From: a virus
IMG/VR virus record: IMGVR_UViG_3300046777_001575
Span: 14,478-78,477 of that record
Reading direction: 5' to 3' (one strand)
DNA length: 64,000 bases
The notes beneath the pieces are model-generated. The model made no database searches. It was not told where the DNA came from and saw only the letters and a list, made by a program, of their open reading frames with translations. Shown piece after piece: positions 3,194 through 14,567 of the stretch. The first letter of the stretch is position 1. Each line of letters starts with the position of its first letter. The translations under genes were made by a program, and so were the position numbers.

Positions 3194-3831
3194 TATACTT
3201 CTTCCAAAGTTACAGAGACATTCCAGTAGTCAAACTTTGTTCCTCTTTTTTCAACTGAGTAATTAAAATTACTAATAAACATTTCTATTAGTTGATTATA
3301 CTGTCTAAGACGATCATACGGGTCTGGCTGACCATTAAAAACATCTTTTTTGTCATACGCAAGAAAAACCCAGAAAGAGTCTTTATGATTTTCATACCAC
3401 TCAAGCATATCTGCTCCACCTGCGCCACCATCTGTTGTATATGATGTATGTGGCGATATGCCAGTTTCTGCATTAAATGCTGGAATATTAGAATGAGATC
3501 TAGACGGAATCATATTCCAACTGGTACTAAGTTTTAATTTATCTGCAATATGATAGGATCTCATTCTTCCATTAATCATTCTTTCACGCTTTTCAATACG
3601 TTCATCTGAAAACTCTAATGGTGATCTGTTGTCATCTGTTAAAATTAAAAACTGATTAATTAGTGTGTCGTCTGGTTCACCAGTTGTATCTGCACCAACT
3701 TCTAACCCATATGGAACATATAACTTATTAATTATGGTGCCTGAATTTTCAGACCAAAGCATACCACTAGGTCTACTATATCTTTTTCTTCCTTGGATAT
3801 AAGAGTACCTTGGATCAATTTCGTCTGCCAC
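3193..3831 (-). CDS. Minor tail protein (distal-tail-like)
   Basis: 212 aa directly after the tape measure; C-terminus [10 protein letters not shown] is typical of Dit-like proteins. Mainly synteny. Confidence 0.55.
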
Positions 3832-6800
3832 TTATACCAATCCCCCTAATTCTTCTGTCTTCTGTTTGTCTAATTGTTGACATTACTGCCTGTGCAATCT
3901 CGTTTGGATTAGCATCTGTCTTTGCATTAACAGTTAATGTATATGTATTATTATACACTGCTCCCCCTGGGTTTTTACCACTATTCATTGCTCTGAGAGT
4001 ATCAACACCATGTGTATCGACTGCATACTTACTCATTATAAATTCTCCTGGAGTTAACATTGCTGGGATAGTATCTGTTCCTCTTGCAAAACCACCACTA
4101 GCAAAATATTTAGGAGGTACTATTCCACCCATGCTAAAACCAAATCTACCAAACACGCTCTTTAAAGCATTAGTTACTGTTGCAACAGGTTTTGTAACTA
4201 TATTTTTTACTGCTGATGCAACATTGGATACCCCAGTTGCAACTGCCTTGGCTACTGTAGAAACAGTACTTGCAACTGTTTTTACTACCGCAGTTGCTGG
4301 CTTTGTAACTGCTGCTACAACCTTTGCAATTGGCTGATTTACACCTAAATTCCACCCAACAGAAGGAACGGATGTTGTTTTTGTTAATGGGCTTCCACCA
4401 AGTGGATTAAATGTAGGGGTTGTTGTTGCTGTAGGCTTAGGAGTAGGTACTGGATTTGGTGTTGGATTTGGTGTTGGATTTGGTGTAGGGGTAGGATCTG
4501 GTGTAGGATCTGGCTTTGGTGTAGGGGTAGGGTCTGGCTTTGGTGTAGGGGTAGGGTCTGGGGTCGGAGTAGGCTCTGGTGTTGGTTCTGGTGTAGGCTC
4601 TGGTGTAGGGGTAGGCTCTGGTGTACCAGATGTTGCTCCAGTGATTGCATCATTGCCACTTGACTGTTGATTATTATATGCCTGTATTAATTTGTCTTGA
4701 GTATTTAAAGCAAGTTGCATTGACTCTATAAACTGCTTACTTCTTACCATAGCAAGATCTACCTGATTTTTAATTGCTTCCCAAGCATCTCTTGTTTTTC
4801 CAAGAACAGTTAAATTTTCAATATCAGTTTTTAATTGAATTTGTTTTAAACGAATAAATTCTTGAGCAGGTTCTATCTTCTTTTCTTCTAAATCAAATAT
4901 CTCATTTTGCAAATCTTTAATATCAGACTCAAGTTCTTTCCTAGTTCTATATGTTTTTGTAACTGGGTCATAGGCTTTTACTGAGTTGAGTTCATACTGT
5001 CTAGATTGCTCTAATGCTTCTCTCTGCTTTGTTACAGCATCAGCAGCCTGCTGTGCTCTCATTTCTTGTGCAGCCCTTGCCGCTGCTGCTATATCTCCAG
5101 ATGTTAGAGCCTCAGCAAGTGTTAGTTGGCCTCTTTGCTGATTAGCAATAGCAGCATTAGCCTTTTCAACATCGTCTAGTGCTTTGATTCTTTCATCATA
5201 TTTTTCATTAATTTTTTGCTCTTGATCTTCAATAGCCTTTAAGGATGCTTCCTTATCATCAATTTTATATTGAATTCCAGCAATAGTATTTTGTGCTTCC
5301 TCAATTATTTTATTGCTTTCTTTAGTGTCTAAATTAAACTTTATTTGAAGTGCAGTTTCTTCAACATCAAAGGCCTCCATAGCGTTACTAAATCCTTGAT
5401 CAAACATGTCTTGCATAAACCCAATAGTGCTCTTTAGTTGATTTAGTCTTTCATTAAAATCACTCACCATCTTATTTAGTTCATTTTGTGCAGCAATAAT
5501 TTGTGCTCTATCTGCACCCTTACTTATTAAACTGTTTATTCTTGATTGTTGAGCAGCAATAGCATTTTCCATTGATCTTAAGTTTTCATCAGAGCCAATT
5601 GCAAAAGCAGTTTCTGAACTGTATTGTTGTCTAATTCTATTTTCTTGAACTCTATCTTTCTTAAATTGAGCAATGTCTGTTTTTATTCCTGAAACTGCTG
5701 CAGCCTTTTCTTGTGCAATAGTTAATGCTTTATATTTTGCTATAAGTGATTTTAAGGTTTTATCGTTAACCCCATTTGCAATTGCTGCTGCAATTGTTTT
5801 ATCAGAAATTAATTCGTATGCATTGGCAACTGGCACTCCAAGTTTAGACAACTTATCGAATGCAATAGTTTGATTTGATAATGCTTTAGACTCTTCTTCC
5901 ATGCTAGAATTAAAATCTCCCATGGTGATTGAATACAAAGCCTCTTGAATATTTTTAGCATCTCTTTTTAGTGCAATAATATTTCCCTTGTTGTCAAACT
6001 TAAACAAAGAATTTTTTCTCTTTTCATATTCTTTTGGATCCATGCCAACAATTAGTTCAATAAGGTCCTGACTTCCACCTAGTGCTCGAATATCATTTTC
6101 TATACCACTAAATACATTTATTGTCTTGCTGCCTCCAAATAATTTATCCAATGCCTTACGAGAAGCAGACCAGCCTTCTGTAACTTTGATTTGATTCATT
6201 CTTACATCTCTAAGTTTCTTTACAAGGTCGTCAAGTGGAGAAGCCTCAACCTTGCTTCCTCCACCAGTATTGCCACCTGTTGGAGCATTTGTATTAACTT
6301 GAACATTATCAACAACAGCCTTGTTTCCTTGAGCCTCTATATATTTTTGTACAATATAGGATTTGCTTCCAGTAATACCAGCACCACCTCTTGGGCCAGT
6401 TTCTTTACGCCAAGCCTTGAAATCTTCGCTTTCAAGTATCTGTGGTTCTGGAACATTAATTAATGTAGAGATAGTAGTTGTATAAACTTTTTGCTGATCT
6501 TCAGTTAGAGTATTGAAATATGCTTCATCAAATGCTGCAGTTCCCTTAACCTGTGGCATAATTTCATAAACAATTTTTGCTGTTAAATCTTTGCTTCCTT
6601 CAATGCTGTCAAGCATTTTGTTTAGTCTGTCGTATGCTTCTTTATTCTTTGGATCTATGTAATAACTTACCATTACATCTGATGGTATAACAGCATTAAG
6701 ATTATTTAACTTAATTATATTTTTTGTAAAATCAAGAGCATCTGAGTCTTTTTCAAATGCTTCTACCTTAGTAATAAATTTTGTTTGTACTGTTTTATTG

Positions 6801-9800
6801 ATTTTATTGTCTGCACCAAGAATATTTTGTGCTGCAACACCAATTGACTCAGAAGTTGCACCACTAAACTTTGTAATAATATTCATCATCTTTGGAGCAA
6901 TATCTTTATTGTCTGTTGCTAACTGAAGAAGGCTTCTAAACACTGCTGGAGGTATATCGCCACTTGCCATCTTTGCCTGAATCAAGAACTCTTGTCCACT
7001 ATCAATAGCACCAGACTTTCTCAAATCTCCTGCTTGCTGATTAACAACATCAAGATAAGCCAATTGATTTGGATCATTCTTATATTTTGCAGTAGTAGCC
7101 TTTTTCATTCCAGACATCATTGCTTCTTGAAGTCCTCCAGCACTATTGTACTGGCTAACAATGTCTCCTTGCAATGCTGCTTGGGCACCTGTTAGTTTAT
7201 CTCTTTCTTTGATATACCTGGTTTGCATTTCATTGGCTTCATTAATTTTACCCTGCAACTTTAACTCTTCAATTTTCTTTTGATAATACATATCAAATGA
7301 ATCAAGCATTTGCTTGTTTTGCTCCATAGCAATTTTTGCATCAACTGCATATGCTGCTCCTAAAGTCCCTGCTTGTTTTGTAAATTTCTTTGATGCAAAA
7401 TAGCCTCCGATAGCACCTGCTGCTGCACCAATTCCTCCACCAATTATTGCTCCAACAACGTTTCCAACTACTGGAACAGCGGTACCAATTGCTCCACCAA
7501 TTGCTGCGCCTGCTGCTGCTCCTCCAAGAGCAGAAGCACCTATTCCAACCTTTTGCATTGTTTTTTGTCCAGCAAGTTTGGTTATAGGATTTGCATTTTG
7601 AATATTTGAGATACTGCTCTTCATATTCTTAGAATTTTCTTGAATCATTTTCATTCTAATTTCAAGCGGCTTATCTAAAAGGTTTTCTCCATTAGGTCCT
7701 AGAAGACTTTCTAGTTGAGCAATAACCTTAAGACCAATTGACATGTCTCCTGCTTGTCTTGCAGCATTCATTGCTAAACTCTTTGCCTGACCTATATCCA
7801 TAGCACCTGACATAATTGCAGAAGATAACTGACTGCTCAAATCTTTTACTGCAACATTTCCCTTGCCTGCAGCATTTTGTTCAGCAATTCTCTTTGTTAA
7901 TGCTTTACCTTCTGCAGTCTGAGTAAATGCTTCTCCATACGTTGTCTTTCCTGTTGCTGGACCAAGCATTGAAAAAGAGTTTTTGCGTCTCAGGTCCATT
8001 TGTTCAGATGCTGTTACTTTACCACTAAACTTTGCTATTTCATTAATTGCAGAAGTTGTTCCTTTAAACTTTTCGCTTTCTTCCAATACCTTTTTCTGTG
8101 CTCCGTCAAATGCCATTCTTAGCGCAACAAAGGATCCAACTGTTGCTGCAAGACCAATTGCTAGTGCTGCTGCTGGACTCTTTAGCATTGGCAAAATCAT
8201 TGACAATCCCATTAAAGGCATCATAACCTTTTGTGATATTTCTCCAACTTTGCCTGGGGCCATAGATCCAATCATTGCTGCTCCAGAAGCAATTCCTACT
8301 GCTCCCCCAAGACCCATCCCTGGTCGTTTACCTGCATCAATTCTTGCTTGTCTTTTTGCTGCTCTATTTTCAGCAAACTTAGTTAATCTTCCCATTGGCG
8401 TTCTTGCTTTTGCTTCTGCTGCTGCTCTTGCATCAATAATTGATTGCTGGTATGCAACCTTTGCAGCCAACTTACTTCTTTTTTCTTCTAATGCTGCTTG
8501 TTTTCTTCTTCCCCGCATAACTGGATCAATTGGTCCAGTAGTTCCATACATAGCAGTTTTGTTTGCATTAATTCTTGCTTGTGTTCTTGCTTCTGCTCTT
8601 TGTCTTTTTTCAATTTGGCGACGTAAAGATTTTGCATCAGCATCTATTGGTCCTGTTCCATACAACAATGTTCTTGATGCTGCTGCTGCTGATTGAGAAA
8701 GAGTTGTTCCGATTGTACTACCAACAGATCTTGCTTCTGCAATAGATCCTCTTGCTCCATCTATTAATGCTGTTGCTACTGTGCTCCTTGCTTCTGGTGC
8801 ATCGGATTTTCCACGCAAGACCATAGGCTTTTGACGAATTTTTGGCTCTGTTGATGCTGGGGCTAGTCTTGTATCCTTTGTACTTCCAGTAGATGACTTA
8901 ACTCCAGCAGGCTTACTTGTTGTCTTTGGTTTTTTTGTTTTTCCAGTTTTTGGATCTTCTACTACTTCGTCTGGTTTAATTAAAATAGATGTATGAAGTT
9001 TGTGTATTTTTTTCCAATCAACCTTTTTACCTTCTCTAAGTCTATCGACCATTGCTTGATAATATGGTCTTTCTTCTGGACTAAGGTCCATAGTTGCTAG
9101 TGTTTTTTCTAGTTTAGGTAAAACTCTATCAATTTCAGCATTCATTGCATTGTGATATTCTTGAGCAGTCATCCCCTTTGCAATATCTGCTGTTGCGTTT
9201 CCAAACCAGAATGGAGATTTTCCTGCTGCAGGGCCCTTAACACCACTCAGGTTTATTTTTGCCATCTCTTCCATTGAAGGAAGATTTTTTACAAAGTCTC
9301 TCTTGCCAGATGCTCTATCAAATACTCCTGCTGCTCCAACATCTGCAATAACATTTCCACCTAAGTTTCCAGCCTTTAGGTCTTTGTCTATTCTAAGGTT
9401 TGCTGCTACAAGTTGTCTAAAATACTGTTCTTTTGTAAAGTTCTTGCCCATCTTTGAAGAATCAAACCTTGCATCATATGGAGACTCTAATACAATTATC
9501 TTTCTCTTACCGCTTGGGTCTGTAGGATCAATCATTGTCCTTACAGTTTGTTTTGGAGCATCTAGTCCATGAACATCACGAGCAATTTGAGTTGCTCTTT
9601 GTTCTGCAAGTGCTCCCTTTTCATCAAGCATAGGCTTAACAAATACTCTTGATCCATCTGGCTTTTCATATAGTCCACCTAGGCCACTAACAGGGAAACT
9701 GAATCCAGTAGTTGGAGAGATCTGTTTTCCAAAGTCTGTTGGAGATAACTTGCCAGACTTGGTTTTTGCTGCCTCTTTTGCAATATCCTTTAGTATCTTT

Positions 9801-12763
9801 ACATTCTTTGCTTGGCTTGGGTTTGCTGCTCTTTTTGCTGCTTCATCACTTCTGCGCTTAGATTCTTCATCTTGGCTTATTGATACACGATGACCAGAGC
9901 CAAGTCTGTTCATATTTACAACAGTTCCATCATTAAGTGTAACAGTTGAAGATCCAGTCTTAACAGCCCCACTCTTTTTGCTTACTCTTTCTTCAATAGT
10001 AAATGATTTGATAAGTCCCTTTTCAACTGCATTACTAAGAATCTTTCTGCTTTCTTCTGGAGTTGTTCCAAGACCTTTTCCAAGCAAGAACTTTGTAGAT
10101 GTTTGATACAACTTTTGAGCATCCCTATATACAGTGCTTGAAGCAATCTCTGGACGTTCTGCTGGAATTCTCTTTGTAAAAATGTCACGAACTAAATTAT
10201 CATTTACTCCTTTTATCTTCCCATCTGCAAAATCTTGTTTAATTATTTCAATTATTGCACGATCCATTGCCTCAACACTTGCTGCTGGAAGTCTAGAAGG
10301 GCTCCACTTTCCTGGACCAAGTTTTTCCCACTCGGCTATAAATATTTTTGGATCTACACCTGCACTAGAAGTCATAGACTTATTTAAGTGCTCTGGGAAA
10401 GTAAATGCAAGTTTATGAAGTGTGGCTGTTGTTGCTGGAAGACCCTGTGATTTTAAAATTGCTTCAAGTGCTCTAAGTTTACCCTTTTGATCATCAGACA
10501 GAAACGCATTATCTCTTATGATGTCAGAAATAAGTTTTTGTTCACTCTTTCCACCAACGTGTGTGATATTTGTTTTTGTTGCTACATCTACTCCAGTGCT
10601 TCCCTCATTAAATCCCTGTACTTTTCTACCTGCAACCAATTGTGCAATCATTGGTCTGTTTGCTGGATCTTGTGCTGATTTTGCTGGAATAACTGCTTCT
10701 CCAGGTGTAAGCATTGTTGGAACAGAGTCGGTATTACCGCTTCCTGGAACTTGCGTAGTTCCTGTAGAATACTTCTTTAGTCCTGGACCCTTACCTCCAC
10801 CTTTAACTGGACCCGTGAAGCCTATTTGTGCTGCAATTGCTCTCTTATATGCTGATGCAAGTGAGTTAACTGCTGCTGCCTCAGAAGTAAATGTTTGTTG
10901 AAGTCTTTGATGTACTTGGTCAAGGGATGCAGCAACTGCTGATGCTTCTAACTGCTCTTTAGTTAGATAAGATGTTTGTTCTCCTAAAATCTTGCTTGTA
11001 TTTCCAGTTTTGTTATACATTGACTTCATGCTTGCAAAAAGTTTAATAATGTTTGCAGCAGCGTTTGCTATCAAACCAAATGTCATAAGGAGAACTGGAC
11101 CAATTCCAGCAACTGCAACAGTTAAAATAGTAATAAACTTCTTTGTTCCATCTCCAAGGTTGTTAAACTTATCAAGAACTTTGCCAACAAACTCAACTAT
11201 AGGGGTAAGTGCTTTTAAGAATTGTTCTCCTACTGGAGCAAGAGAAGTTTTAAGATCTTCCATAGATTTCTTAAACTTATATGTTGTTGTATTTTGAATC
11301 TTATCTAATTCTCGCTGTGACAAGATAGCAAGTTCTTCTGTAGTTGCCCTTGTTAGACCTAATACTCTTTGCGCTTGTGTACCTTGCGCTGTTACGTTCT
11401 GAAATAATGTAGATAGTCTTGAGAACTGGAACTTACCAAACAACTGTTCAATAGCACGAGCACGATTAAGTGGATCTAAGGTATCTAGTGCCTGTGCAAA
11501 ACCAACAACAGTAGCCTTTATGTCTCCCTTATTTGCTTCAACAATGCCACGAATATTAACACCAAGATTTCCAAGCATCTTTGCTGCTTTATCAGATGGA
11601 TTAATTAATGATGCAAGACCAGACTTTAGTGCGTTAGCACCTTCTGATGCGTTGATTCCACCTTCCTTCATTGCTGTAAGGAAGAATGCCAAATCTTCTA
11701 CATCTCCACCAAGTTGCTTAACAACTGGACCAGCCTTTGGAATTGCAACTGTTAAGTCTTCAATTGATACAACAGTTTGGTTTTCAACTGCGTTAAGAAA
11801 GTCAATTTTCTTTGCAAGATCTGCTGAGGCAACACCAAACGCATTTGTTACCGATATTGTTGTTTCCAATGCCTGTGTTTGTTCAACTCCACCAAGAACT
11901 GCAAGCCTTGTTGCCTGTGCAACCTGTGCAGTTAGTTCTGCCCCCATCTTACCCATTGCTGCTGCATCTGCAGCCATCTTCATGGTGTCTTCAACTGCAA
12001 CTCCATACTTGGTATATTCTTTAGCAAGAGTTTGAATCTGCTTTATCATTGCATCTGTTTCTTCTTGCGTTGTAAACATTTCTCCGTATACACGCTTGAA
12101 TCTGATTGCTTGCTCTTCAAGTTGCATAAATGTCTTTGAAGCCTGTGCTCCAAGCATTGCCAATGGGACTGTGAAACCAACCATCAACTGACGGCCAGCC
12201 CACTGTGTATTCTTACCAAAATTTAGAAGATTTGTGGATCCTTGTTTTAATAGTTGATTAAGGAGTTGCTGTCTCTGTGCTGCGATTGCTGTTTGAGTGC
12301 CTAGATTCTTCATATCTAGGGTAAGAGGTCTTACAGCGATTGCCTCTAATGCACCATTTGCACCACGACCCAGTTTAATATACTGTGTCTGAATATCTTT
12401 TACACGCTCTCGTGCAACCTTGTTTATTGTTTCAAACTCAGACCTAAATAGTCTTCCAAAGGTTTTTGTGGCTGCTCCAGTGTATCTAAAATATTCTCTG
12501 GATGTTAACTTGTTACGTTCTAACGCATCAGTAAAATGCTCTGTGCTTGTTGTTACTTGTCGCATAGATGCCTGGAATTGTCCAGTAGCATTTATTGCGT
12601 TCATCAAGTTTTTTGCTTGATTTGCTGATACTGCTGCTGCTGCAGTACCAGACTTTGCCATTTGTGTATGGAAGGCTGATATTTGACGTTGTAGAAGTTT
12701 TAGACTTGCTAAAGCATCCGACGTATCAATATTTACATTAATATTGGATTGAATATCAGCCAT
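3815..12763 (-). CDS. Tail tape measure protein, multidomain (TP901-type core, kinase-like insert, Gly-zipper segments, coiled coil, Pro/Thr linker)
   Basis: 2982 aa, Ala/Gln-rich, TMP core (…[16 protein letters not shown]…), located after the tail chaperones; SD GAGGTG upstream. Confidence 0.93.
4430..4625 (-). repeat. Pro/Thr-rich tandem repeat inside the tape measure (PEPT/PDPT/PNPT)
   Basis: [58 protein letters not shown]. Confidence 0.9.
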
Positions 12764-12781: not shown

Positions 12782-13108
12782 TTAGTTGTTTGCAAGATTG
12801 CCTAGCAAAGTTGCGTCAGAAAGTTTAATTCCTGATGCTTCTTCAACAATCTTGTATACAGTTGGAAGATCTAGATTTTCTTCTAAGGCTTCCTTGTCTT
12901 CCGCCAATTCTGGCTTGTACTGTTGCATTGCGATTTGTACACAGTCCATGAGCAAATCCATAGACTTTTCGTTATCTTCTGCGACCTTTGCAATATCTTC
13001 AAACTTCTTCATAAATGGACGAAGTAGAGAGATCTTTAGTGGTCGGACCTTGACTTTTGTACCGTCAATTAGTGTTACTGTCTTTTCTTCTGTTGTGGCG
13101 GTTGCCAT
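12782..13108 (-). CDS. Tail assembly chaperone, short (gpG-like)
   Basis: 108 aa acidic helical protein immediately before the TMP; SD AAGGAGG; homologous to the N-terminus of 13167-13844. Confidence 0.75.
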   Translation of the reverse strand: MATATTEEKTVTLIDGTKVKVRPLKISLLRPFMKKFEDIAKVAEDNEKSMDLLMDCVQIAMQQYKPELAEDKEALEENLDLPTVYKIVEEASGIKLSDATLLGNLANN

Positions 13109-13166: not shown

Positions 13167-13844
13167 TTAATAACTTTCATAATCAAGACCCATTCCTATA
13201 CCAAAACCAGCCTTTTCTGCATTTTTACCTTGTAGGGCAAGTATGTCATTTCCATCACTCACTGCACCCTTGCTAAAAACCCTGGCTTTCATATCTTCCC
13301 ATGCATTGCTATTTCCAGAATTTTTATCTAAATCTACACCCTGCATAGCAGCAGAAAACTTTTTGTCAGAATAGTCTAGTTCTCTTTTAATTTGTAATGT
13401 AGCGGTCAACTCTTGCATTGATAAAGAAGACTCTAATTCTTCATAATCTTTCCATATACCAAGCAAAAAAACCTCGGACTCTAATTTAGCCAAATCCAAT
13501 GTCTCCCAACTGGATCCACTTTCTACCGCTTGAGATTTTACTGTATCTTCTGACTTTTCATTAATTTTGATTCCTGCTGCTATATCAATAATTTCATATA
13601 TTGTAGGCAAATCAAGATTATCTTCTAATTGCTCTATTGTTTTTATTGATGGATAGTATTGTTGCATTGTAACAAGAGCACATTCAGCCAATATAGCAAT
13701 TGACTCATCATCTGTTTTTGCTTCTTTAATCTTTTCAAATGTTTCTAAAAACTCTCTAAGATATTTTATTTTTAAAGGAGCAGCAATAATTATGCTGTCA
13801 TCTATTAAAGATATTTTTTTAGTATCGTATATTTTAGTTGCCAT
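13167..13844 (-). CDS. Tail assembly chaperone, long (gpGT-like)
   Basis: First ~95 aa align with the 108-aa neighbour (LID…PLKI…MQQY…LE.NLDLPT.Y.I…GIK), followed by a ~125-aa extension. Confidence 0.7.
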   Translation of the reverse strand: MATKIYDTKKISLIDDSIIIAAPLKIKYLREFLETFEKIKEAKTDDESIAILAECALVTMQQYYPSIKTIEQLEDNLDLPTIYEIIDIAAGIKINEKSEDTVKSQAVESGSSWETLDLAKLESEVFLLGIWKDYEELESSLSMQELTATLQIKRELDYSDKKFSAAMQGVDLDKNSGNSNAWEDMKARVFSKGAVSDGNDILALQGKNAEKAGFGIGMGLDYESY

Positions 13845-13910: not shown

Positions 13911-14567
13911 TTATGCTGTTAGGGAACGATCTACGATCTTTCCGTATGACGCATTGTCGTTTGGAAGAAGACGGAATGATACTTCAAACATTGAAGCCTC
14001 ATCACGCTTTGCTGATACTGTAACATTCTCAATTGAGAGTGCACGGTATGCAACATAGATTCTTTCCTTTGGCTCTAGAGAAGAACCAGAACCTGGTCCT
14101 ACTGCTACGAGTCCACGCTCTAGCGGAACGTCACCGATATCACCAGCAGACATCTTGAGTTGTGAAACTCCTGATGCTGTTGTTAGATCTGAGTCGTCTC
14201 CAGCAATTGCTACTAGAAGATTTTCTAGTGTTGCTTCTGCGAATGCAGTGTTTAGATTAACTGTCATACCTTGCTTGAACAAACGAGCAACGTCGAGAAG
14301 TTGGTCTACTGCTACTTCACCGAAATCAGGCTGGAATGCGAGTTCCAAACCATTTGATGTGTATCCTACGTTGGTATAGTCATTATTTGATGACAATGTA
14401 TCCTTGTAAGATGTTGTGGATGCTGTGAATACTGGAAGATCTGCTGATGCTTGAGTATCAGTAATTGCTCCAGTTAATGCTTCGTATCCAATTGGACCTG
14501 CATCATGTGTAAAAAGTGCTGCTGCACCCACGATGATGTTACTACTTGAACCACGGCTGTATGCCAT
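13911..14567 (-). CDS. Major tail (tube) protein
   Basis: NIIVGAAALF…VGYTSNGLELAFQPDFGEVAVDQ motif of actinophage tail tubes; position before chaperones; followed by a terminator. Confidence 0.85.
   Translation of the reverse strand: MAYSRGSSSNIIVGAAALFTHDAGPIGYEALTGAITDTQASADLPVFTASTTSYKDTLSSNNDYTNVGYTSNGLELAFQPDFGEVAVDQLLDVARLFKQGMTVNLNTAFAEATLENLLVAIAGDDSDLTTASGVSQLKMSAGDIGDVPLERGLVAVGPGSGSSLEPKERIYVAYRALSIENVTVSAKRDEASMFEVSFRLLPNDNASYGKIVDRSLTA

Follow-up and report, generated by a model that had tools for sequence, protein, structure and literature searches.

Tape measure proteins (TMPs) of phages occupy and close off the tail channel and are released when the genome is ejected (PMC13033339), and every lambda tail holds six TMP copies (PMC12617516). 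Some TMPs also carry wall hydrolases that act during entry, as described in PMC12617516 (citing its references 56 and 59). The TM4 Rpf-like motif, the phiIPLA35 muramidase and T5 pb2 are catalytic modules within a TMP that PMC12617516 and PMC13033339 cite as putatively active at entry. These known TMP enzymes are peptidoglycan hydrolases, which act outside the membrane and are independent of ATP, whereas a kinase-fold module needs the cytoplasm. Here we describe a protein-kinase-like (PKL) domain embedded in the giant TMP of a phage represented by IMG/VR virus record IMGVR_UViG_3300046777_001575 (78.5 kb, estimated completeness 72%), and propose that it may be a kinase delivered with the tape measure. 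The window referred to below is the whole stretch of 64,000 nucleotides that was analysed, corresponding to positions 14,478 to 78,477 of that record.

Kinase domains have previously been described in the 'polyvalent proteins' of phages and plasmids, which are predicted to enter with the DNA and to act on host proteins (PMC5512222). They resemble the present case in being kinase-superfamily domains fused into large multidomain phage proteins. Those domains, found in (pro)phages of Verrucomicrobia-Chlamydia and Bacteroidetes, have lost the whole C-terminal subdomain (PMC5512222), whereas the TMP domain retains its C lobe (helices 165-259 are packed in the model presented below) and for this reason lies outside that family. 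The TMP is not mentioned as a carrier in the paper on polyvalent proteins (PMC5512222), and no paper describing a kinase inside a TMP was found in the literature searched. Other relevant enzymes are HipA, HipT and Helicobacter pylori CtkA, all of them atypical Ser/Thr kinases of bacteria, small in size and deployed in conflict or against host targets, and CotH of the Bacillus spore coat, a free-standing protein of 359-362 amino acids (aa) in spore formers, which is inactivated by mutation of the catalytic D228 or the metal-binding D251 (PMC7821199).

The domain studied here comprises ~255 aa, and the coordinates of all features are collected in Table 1. An initial annotation, made from the DNA letters, had proposed that five kinase motifs occur in the correct order within the TMP, and direct translation located all five in that order between residues 1026 and 1143. 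An exhaustive HMMER search with TMP residues 1000-1270 as query, performed against 1.84 billion cluster representatives, recovered 164 representatives at E<=1e-3, of which 135 reached E<=1e-30. Alignment of 129 full-length domain copies, 29-71% identical to that of the window, showed G1020, G1030, K1043, E1054, P1070, Q1117, N1133 and D1141 to be invariant, and D1128 was conserved in all copies except one, so that the Lys, Glu, Asp, Asn and Asp expected to persist in homologs have done so. The spacing from D1128 to N1133 (+5) is canonical, as in HRDxxxxN, and that from N1133 to D1141 (+8) is unusually short. The domain is under purifying selection: the ratio of nonsynonymous to synonymous substitution rates (dN/dS) was 0.08-0.28 in pairwise comparisons with eight relatives, with dS near saturation, and contigs of four other sequencing runs carried substitutions but zero indels across the kinase region. 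The probability that the motifs are a chance resemblance within a long repetitive protein is negligible, this explanation being ruled out by the number of homologs, the residue conservation, the predicted fold and dN/dS.

The structure of the domain was predicted with AlphaFold2 from a 32-sequence alignment, giving a two-lobed model with a predicted local distance difference test score (pLDDT) of 92.6 and a predicted template modelling score of 0.90. In this model the N lobe extends up to ~aa 1095 and the helical C lobe up to ~aa 1258. The order of its elements is kinase-like, with K1043 in strand 3 and E1054 in a helix, followed by two strands, a helix corresponding to alphaE, the loop bearing D1126, D1128 and N1133, short strands holding D1141, and finally the helices of the C lobe. 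Comparison with 48,161 solved chains using VIA-align returned protein-kinase-like enzymes in all of the 50 best rows. The best match was CotH (5jda; Z 12.3, 219 residues aligned, root mean square deviation 4.1, 9% identity), with a modest margin over the next row, MavQ (7m7a; Z 10.4). These were followed by PI4KII-alpha (4hnd and 4pla; Z 10.2), CtkA (Z 10.1), Fam20C (Z 9.4), Vps34 (2x6f; Z 9.3) and HipA and HipT (Z 8-9, HipA 9.0), and PI4KIII-beta likewise stood in the top tier. Foldseek against the PDB gave 12 matches at E<=1e-3, all of them kinase-containing entries, with CtkA at the top (E 1.4e-4); kinases made up nearly the whole of the Foldseek list, in which SidJ was also present. With two lobes, a beta3 Lys and an alphaC Glu, a catalytic Asp with Asn at +5 and a metal-binding Asp, the PKL fold that had been anticipated for this domain is well supported by the model.

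A more specific relationship, to HipA and to phosphatidylinositol (PI) kinases, had also been suggested by the initial annotation. The kinase fold part of that suggestion stands; the kinship to these two groups is not specific, with CotH as the top structural match and no match to a sequence model of either group. Similarly, the catalytic loop had been compared with HRDLKxxN or with DxHxxN, and it shows the +5 spacing of the former and lacks the His of the latter, reading D-K-D-L-K-A-G-N where DxHxxN or DRHxxN would carry a His. Pfam gave zero matches for the domain of the window at E<=1. When 32 family members were searched against Pfam at E<=10, no kinase family recurred, PF08757 and PF00454 were unmatched, and HipA_2 was matched by one of the 32 members (E 0.014). 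Searches of NCBIfam, PHROGs and PDB sequences, the last with both a single sequence and a profile, produced no significant kinase match to the domain, and the PDB profile search did not recover CotH 5jda. The features that define HipA (PF07804 or PF20613, a DxHxxN loop and a HipB-type partner) were not found: the loop is without the His, the domain sits inside a TMP, and it has neither a HipB-type partner nor a toxin-antitoxin context. For PI3K/PI4K, both a PF00454 match and a DRHxxN loop were missing, and for CotH there was no match to its sequence model, PF08757. Judged by the sequence definitions of these families, the domain falls outside CotH, HipA, PI3K/PI4K and the eukaryote-type Pkinase, and represents a kinase-like family absent from curated libraries. 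The label "HipA/PI3-4K-like" is no better supported than "CotH-like".

CotH shares with the TMP domain an atypical kinase fold with a catalytic and a metal-binding Asp, and it too is an enzyme built into a large proteinaceous assembly; it differs in being free-standing, whereas the phage domain is a ~255-aa cassette in a TMP. The PI3K/PI4K group (MavQ, PI4KII-alpha and Vps34) aligns at Z 9.3-10.4 over 207-220 residues and shares the D-x-x-x-x-N spacing of the catalytic loop and the D-x-G metal site, whereas the TMP domain is much smaller, without helical or C2 accessory domains and without the catalytic-loop His. Delivery of a lipid kinase into an actinobacterial host, with phosphatidylinositol or related lipids of the envelope as its substrates, would be consistent with the presence of MavQ (a Legionella PI kinase), PI4KII-alpha, Vps34 and PI4KIII-beta in the top tier of matches. 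Insertion of the TMP into the membrane would also place the domain beside lipids, the nearest cultured relatives of the phage are Streptomyces phages, and Actinobacteria make PI. We nevertheless consider this distinctly unlikely: the protein kinases CotH and CtkA score as high or higher, the PI3_PI4_kinase model of Pfam found nothing in the 32 members even at the permissive threshold, the catalytic loop is not of the DRHxxN type, and the actinobacterial host rests on distant kinship, with no WhiB gene on the contig. A protein substrate is slightly favoured by analogy with CotH and CtkA, and a lipid or glycan would also be possible.

All or nearly all copies retain the nucleotide-binding Lys and Glu, the Asp and Asn of the catalytic loop and the Asp that binds metal, and the domain is therefore most probably active as an ATP-dependent phosphotransferase. 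Pseudokinases usually lose one or more of these residues. A kinase fold put to some other use, such as AMPylation, glutamylation, ATP hydrolysis or nucleotide binding in a structural or gating role within the TMP, is very unlikely in our view. Kinase-fold enzymes with other chemistry do exist, with SidJ among the Foldseek matches, the distance between the active-site Asn and Asp is short, and module X, which is paired with the kinase in the lineage of the window (see below), matches no known fold; the full canonical set of residues, conserved across the 129 sequences, is nevertheless the signature of phosphotransfer.

The protein that contains the domain was identified as a TMP by sequence models and by gene order. 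Matches to TMP models of Pfam (PF10145), NCBIfam (TIGR01760) and PHROGs lie in the N-terminal 675 residues of the 2,982-aa protein. The gene lies among those for a head maturation protease, the major head protein, an immunoglobulin-domain major-tail-type protein and two chaperone-like genes, and is followed by minor tail protein genes, and Streptomyces phage Wofford has the same gene order. On these core models and on its position between the tail chaperone-like and minor tail genes, the open reading frame (ORF) can be taken as a genuine phage tail TMP within a siphovirus morphogenesis module of normal gene order, and the placement of the domain inside the tape measure, as initially annotated, is upheld.

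The kinase-like family was found essentially only inside giant TMPs. Of 150 homologs among the matches listed, 126 are at least 1,500 aa long, and nearly all of the short ones are fragments whose flanks match internal portions of giant TMPs; one protein of 276 aa (P0059) is ambiguous between a fragment and a stand-alone gene. At least 101 related loci were present in IMG/VR. A tblastn search of the domain against 50,697 cultured-phage records gave no match at E<=1e-5 and noise alone at E<=10, and megablast of the TMP gene against phages gave no match. A pattern-seeded scan of 185,579 species genomes with the single protein detected no relative, hence no prophage or cellular copy at that sensitivity. 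Since the family occurs essentially only in giant TMPs, its role probably depends on carriage in the tail.

At the level of fold, BFVD matches with a Foldseek probability of 1.0 were obtained to parts of large (770-1,480 aa) phage proteins (A0A6B9L6W7, A0A6J5S481, A0A6J5PWC9, A0A4D6E245 and A0A5Q2F0H9), which carry annotations as ADP-ribosyltransferase or portal fusions; some come from actinophages, among them Mycobacterium phage Onyinye and Gordonia phages GodonK and Sixama. The kinase model also matches PI3K/PI4K-annotated proteins of haloarchaeal tailed viruses in BFVD. The matched phage proteins have no sequence-level similarity to the kinase domain and provide a fold-level lead.

The best reading of these data, to which we assign a probability of roughly 0.55, is that the domain is an active phosphotransferase expelled with the TMP. 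The present analysis establishes its fold, conserved residues, purifying selection, placement in a TMP and behaviour as a cassette, and we infer its catalysis, delivery, timing and substrate alike. According to this proposal, the few TMP copies of each virion would be stored unfolded or extended in the tail lumen and would be expelled at infection, once the C-terminal part, which contains hydrophobic segments, has made contact with the membrane. Refolding of the kinase domain would then take place at the cytoplasmic membrane or beyond it, with access to ATP, and the domain would phosphorylate a host target ahead of any phage gene expression. Hydrophobic segments were found at TMP residues 541-576, 1522-1552 and 1755-1787, and the kinase domain is therefore placed between putatively membrane-active parts of the protein.

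Several points weigh against this proposal. The tail-tube lumen is estimated to be a few nm wide, and a folded domain of ~28 kDa in several TMP copies should not fit into it; the domain must therefore pass through unfolded and regain its fold afterwards. The N-terminal third of the TMP, in which the kinase is located, would be expected to exit the tail last, provided that the tip is occupied by the C-terminus. The domain may not get as far as the cytoplasm, which is the sole place with ATP and to which a kinase must therefore gain access. The structural scores are moderate (Z 12, Foldseek TM 0.35-0.42) with 9-15% identity to known kinases, and enzymes of this fold can perform other chemistry, for example AMPylation or glutamylation. 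Finally, the cassette is dispensable, given that close relatives lack the kinase.

The main alternative, which avoids the problem of passage through the tail, is that the kinase acts in the producer cell: late in infection, with the TMP still in the cytoplasm, the folded domain would phosphorylate phage structural proteins or the TMP itself, for instance in the Ser/Thr/Lys/Arg-rich linker downstream of it. In that cell ATP is certainly present and folding would meet no steric problem. The top structural match, CotH, phosphorylates Ser-rich repeats of the coat proteins CotB and CotG (PMC7821199), and a basic Ser/Thr-rich stretch follows the kinase within the same variable slot. We regard this explanation as unlikely, because a free-standing late gene would suffice for such a role, yet almost no stand-alone copy was seen; moreover, the linker downstream of the kinase is unconserved among homologs, and delivery accounts better for its embedding in the single protein that is ejected before the DNA.

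Within the TMP the kinase occupies a variable slot, where it behaves as an optional cassette. Comparison of 80 IMG/VR loci, selected by 65-99% identity of the TMP N-terminus to that of the window, showed that complete TMPs with the kinase are mostly 2,900-3,100 aa long and those without it mostly 2,560-2,760 aa, and that complete TMPs with N-termini 65-83% identical to that of the window lack the domain. In blastp alignments with kinase-less relatives, TMP residues 1 to ~725-845 align, the centre is unaligned, and alignment restarts at ~aa 1333-1405 for the nearest relatives and further along for others. A FastTree phylogeny of the N-terminal 680 residues of the TMP (60 distinct rows) requires at least four gains or losses of the kinase, all forced by well-supported branches. 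The kinase-less relatives fill the slot with 170-1,500 aa of unrelated sequence (five examples are given in Table 1), in which no Pfam match was found, except a sub-threshold DUF3626 in L136 (E 2.6e-4). These sequences may represent further payloads that have escaped recognition.

Directly upstream of the kinase in the window lies a second conserved module, designated module X, with invariant His, Trp and Asp positions. Module X is present in 26 proteins, in all of which the kinase follows directly downstream, and the kinase also occurs without it. AlphaFold2 modelled it at moderate confidence (pLDDT 79.8); structural comparison gave no match (best Z 5.5), and no Pfam or NCBIfam match was obtained. 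Module X may assist the kinase as a partner for targeting or regulation.

Blocks of ~30 residues terminating in M-L-T-P-G-E were identified just ahead of the slot and again near the C-terminus of the TMP. Among 110 homologs, 57 have such a block no more than 120 residues upstream of the kinase (median distance 60 residues) and 34 have one downstream of it (median 27 residues), where about nine would be expected by chance. The blocks may be recombination or cassette borders, or processing sites. Processing of a TMP has been described for gpH of lambda, which is cleaved near its C-terminus once the tail is assembled (PMC12617516).

A broader and more tentative reading, which we consider possible but doubtful, is that the central slot of giant TMPs is a general effector-delivery platform and that the kinase is one swappable payload among several unrecognised ones. 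If so, a few kinase molecules would be pushed in ahead of the DNA and would act within seconds, before the phage genes are read, to switch off host defence or to remodel the envelope or translation, and the LTPGE blocks would act as borders of the cassettes or as sites of processing.

The closest cultured relatives of the phage are Streptomyces phages of the Stanwilliamsviridae, with 29-30% identity in the TMP N-terminus and 40-42% in the major head protein; in Wofford, a representative of these with a TMP of 2,084 aa, the kinase family profile found no match. On the basis of this distant kinship, an actinobacterial host is likely. The G+C content of the DNA is ~37%, and any actinobacterial host would therefore belong to a low-GC freshwater lineage. 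No WhiB gene was detected on the 72%-complete contig. Assignment of the host through nrdJ was attempted and rejected as uninformative, the 83-96% identical matches being phage contigs in metagenome-assembled genomes (MAGs) of many unrelated phyla. These matches (L163-L176) lie in MAGs of Chitinophagaceae, Flavobacterium, Luteolibacter, Gammaproteobacteria, Bifidobacterium, Acidimicrobiaceae, Paceibacteria and others, and their contigs are almost certainly of phage origin, having been binned wrongly with bacterial genomes. Matches of 56-57% to nrdJ in Micrococcales MAGs offer a weak hint of the host.

The carriers of the domain are abundant uncultured freshwater phages. Near-identical sequence was recovered in aquatic and freshwater metagenomes from a dozen or more studies (15 among the matches listed). 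Contigs from two metatranscriptome runs also cover the kinase region; carry-over of DNA is possible, so they are no proof of transcription.

Additional features of the TMP region were observed. Two adjacent genes upstream of the TMP gene both match phrog_10504, and the longer one additionally matches phrog_10474. The pair looks like a duplicated or extended tail-chaperone pair, unlike the usual single G/GT arrangement. Near its C-terminus the TMP contains a long Pro/Thr/Glu/Asp linker of repeated P-T-P and P-E-P units, after which comes a Val/Ala/Thr-rich repeat.

Table 1. Features of the kinase-bearing TMP and its neighbourhood, with positions in the window unless a locus is named
Feature	Position	Strand	TMP residues	Details
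TMP gene	3815..12763	minus		2,982 aa, single uninterrupted ORF
Protein-kinase-like domain	8984..9760	minus	1002-1260	~255 aa
Inner segment of the domain	9002-9721	minus	1015-1254	
Nucleotide-loop region	9668..9706	minus		G1020, S1022, G1030 invariant, Y1032 near-invariant; between and in first strands of model
SGLGGLY	9668-9688	minus	1026-1032	
VFVK	9635-9646	minus	1040-1043	
K1043, beta3 Lys	9635..9637	minus	1043	129/129; strand 40-45 (third strand) of model
ALAEQ	9599-9613	minus	1051-1055	
E1054, alphaC Glu	9602..9604	minus	1054	129/129; long helix 49-64 of model
DKDLKAGNL, catalytic loop	9362-9388	minus	1126-1134	D1126 123/129, D1128 128/129, N1133 129/129; right after model helix 112-125
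IADVG	9335-9349	minus	1139-1143	
Metal-binding D1141, V, G1143 (DFG equivalent)	9335..9343	minus	1141-1143	D1141 129/129, G1143 126/129
Variable TMP slot	8564..10591	minus	~725-1400	Module X, kinase, basic Ser/Thr/Lys/Arg-rich linker
Module X	9809..10585	minus	727-985	~260 aa
Internal border block	10688..10783	minus	661-692	KKY..G..D-S-V-P-x-M-L-T-P-G-E
C-terminal copy of border block	4034..4129	minus	2879-2910	
PF10145 (Pfam) match			246-443	E 1.6e-24
TIGR01760 match			199-556	E 6e-31
PHROG TMP families			8-675	Best phrog_10030, E 1.8e-100
Pro/Thr/Glu/Asp linker	~4450-4660	minus	~2700-2770	
phrog_10504 gene, shorter	12782-13108	minus		
phrog_10504 gene, longer	13167-13844	minus		
Slot contents of kinase-less relatives	L115:12140-13282; L116:12155-15397; L135:3808-5565; L152:12203-16690; L136:12086-15688			

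Enzymatic domains in TMPs and kinase domains in polyvalent phage proteins were already known, and what appears to be new is a kinase-fold domain in a TMP. The enzymatic TMP domains known so far cut the cell wall. If the proposed delivery is true, siphoviruses can use the TMP to inject an ATP-dependent enzyme of the signalling or toxin type, in parallel to the internal head proteins of other phages and to the effectors of bacterial secretion systems. The domain also founds a kinase-like family missing from curated libraries, and at ~255 aa and with a confident model it is readily expressed and directly testable. As its carriers are abundant in freshwater, the mechanism would bear on a major phage-host system of lakes, the hosts of which are hard to culture.

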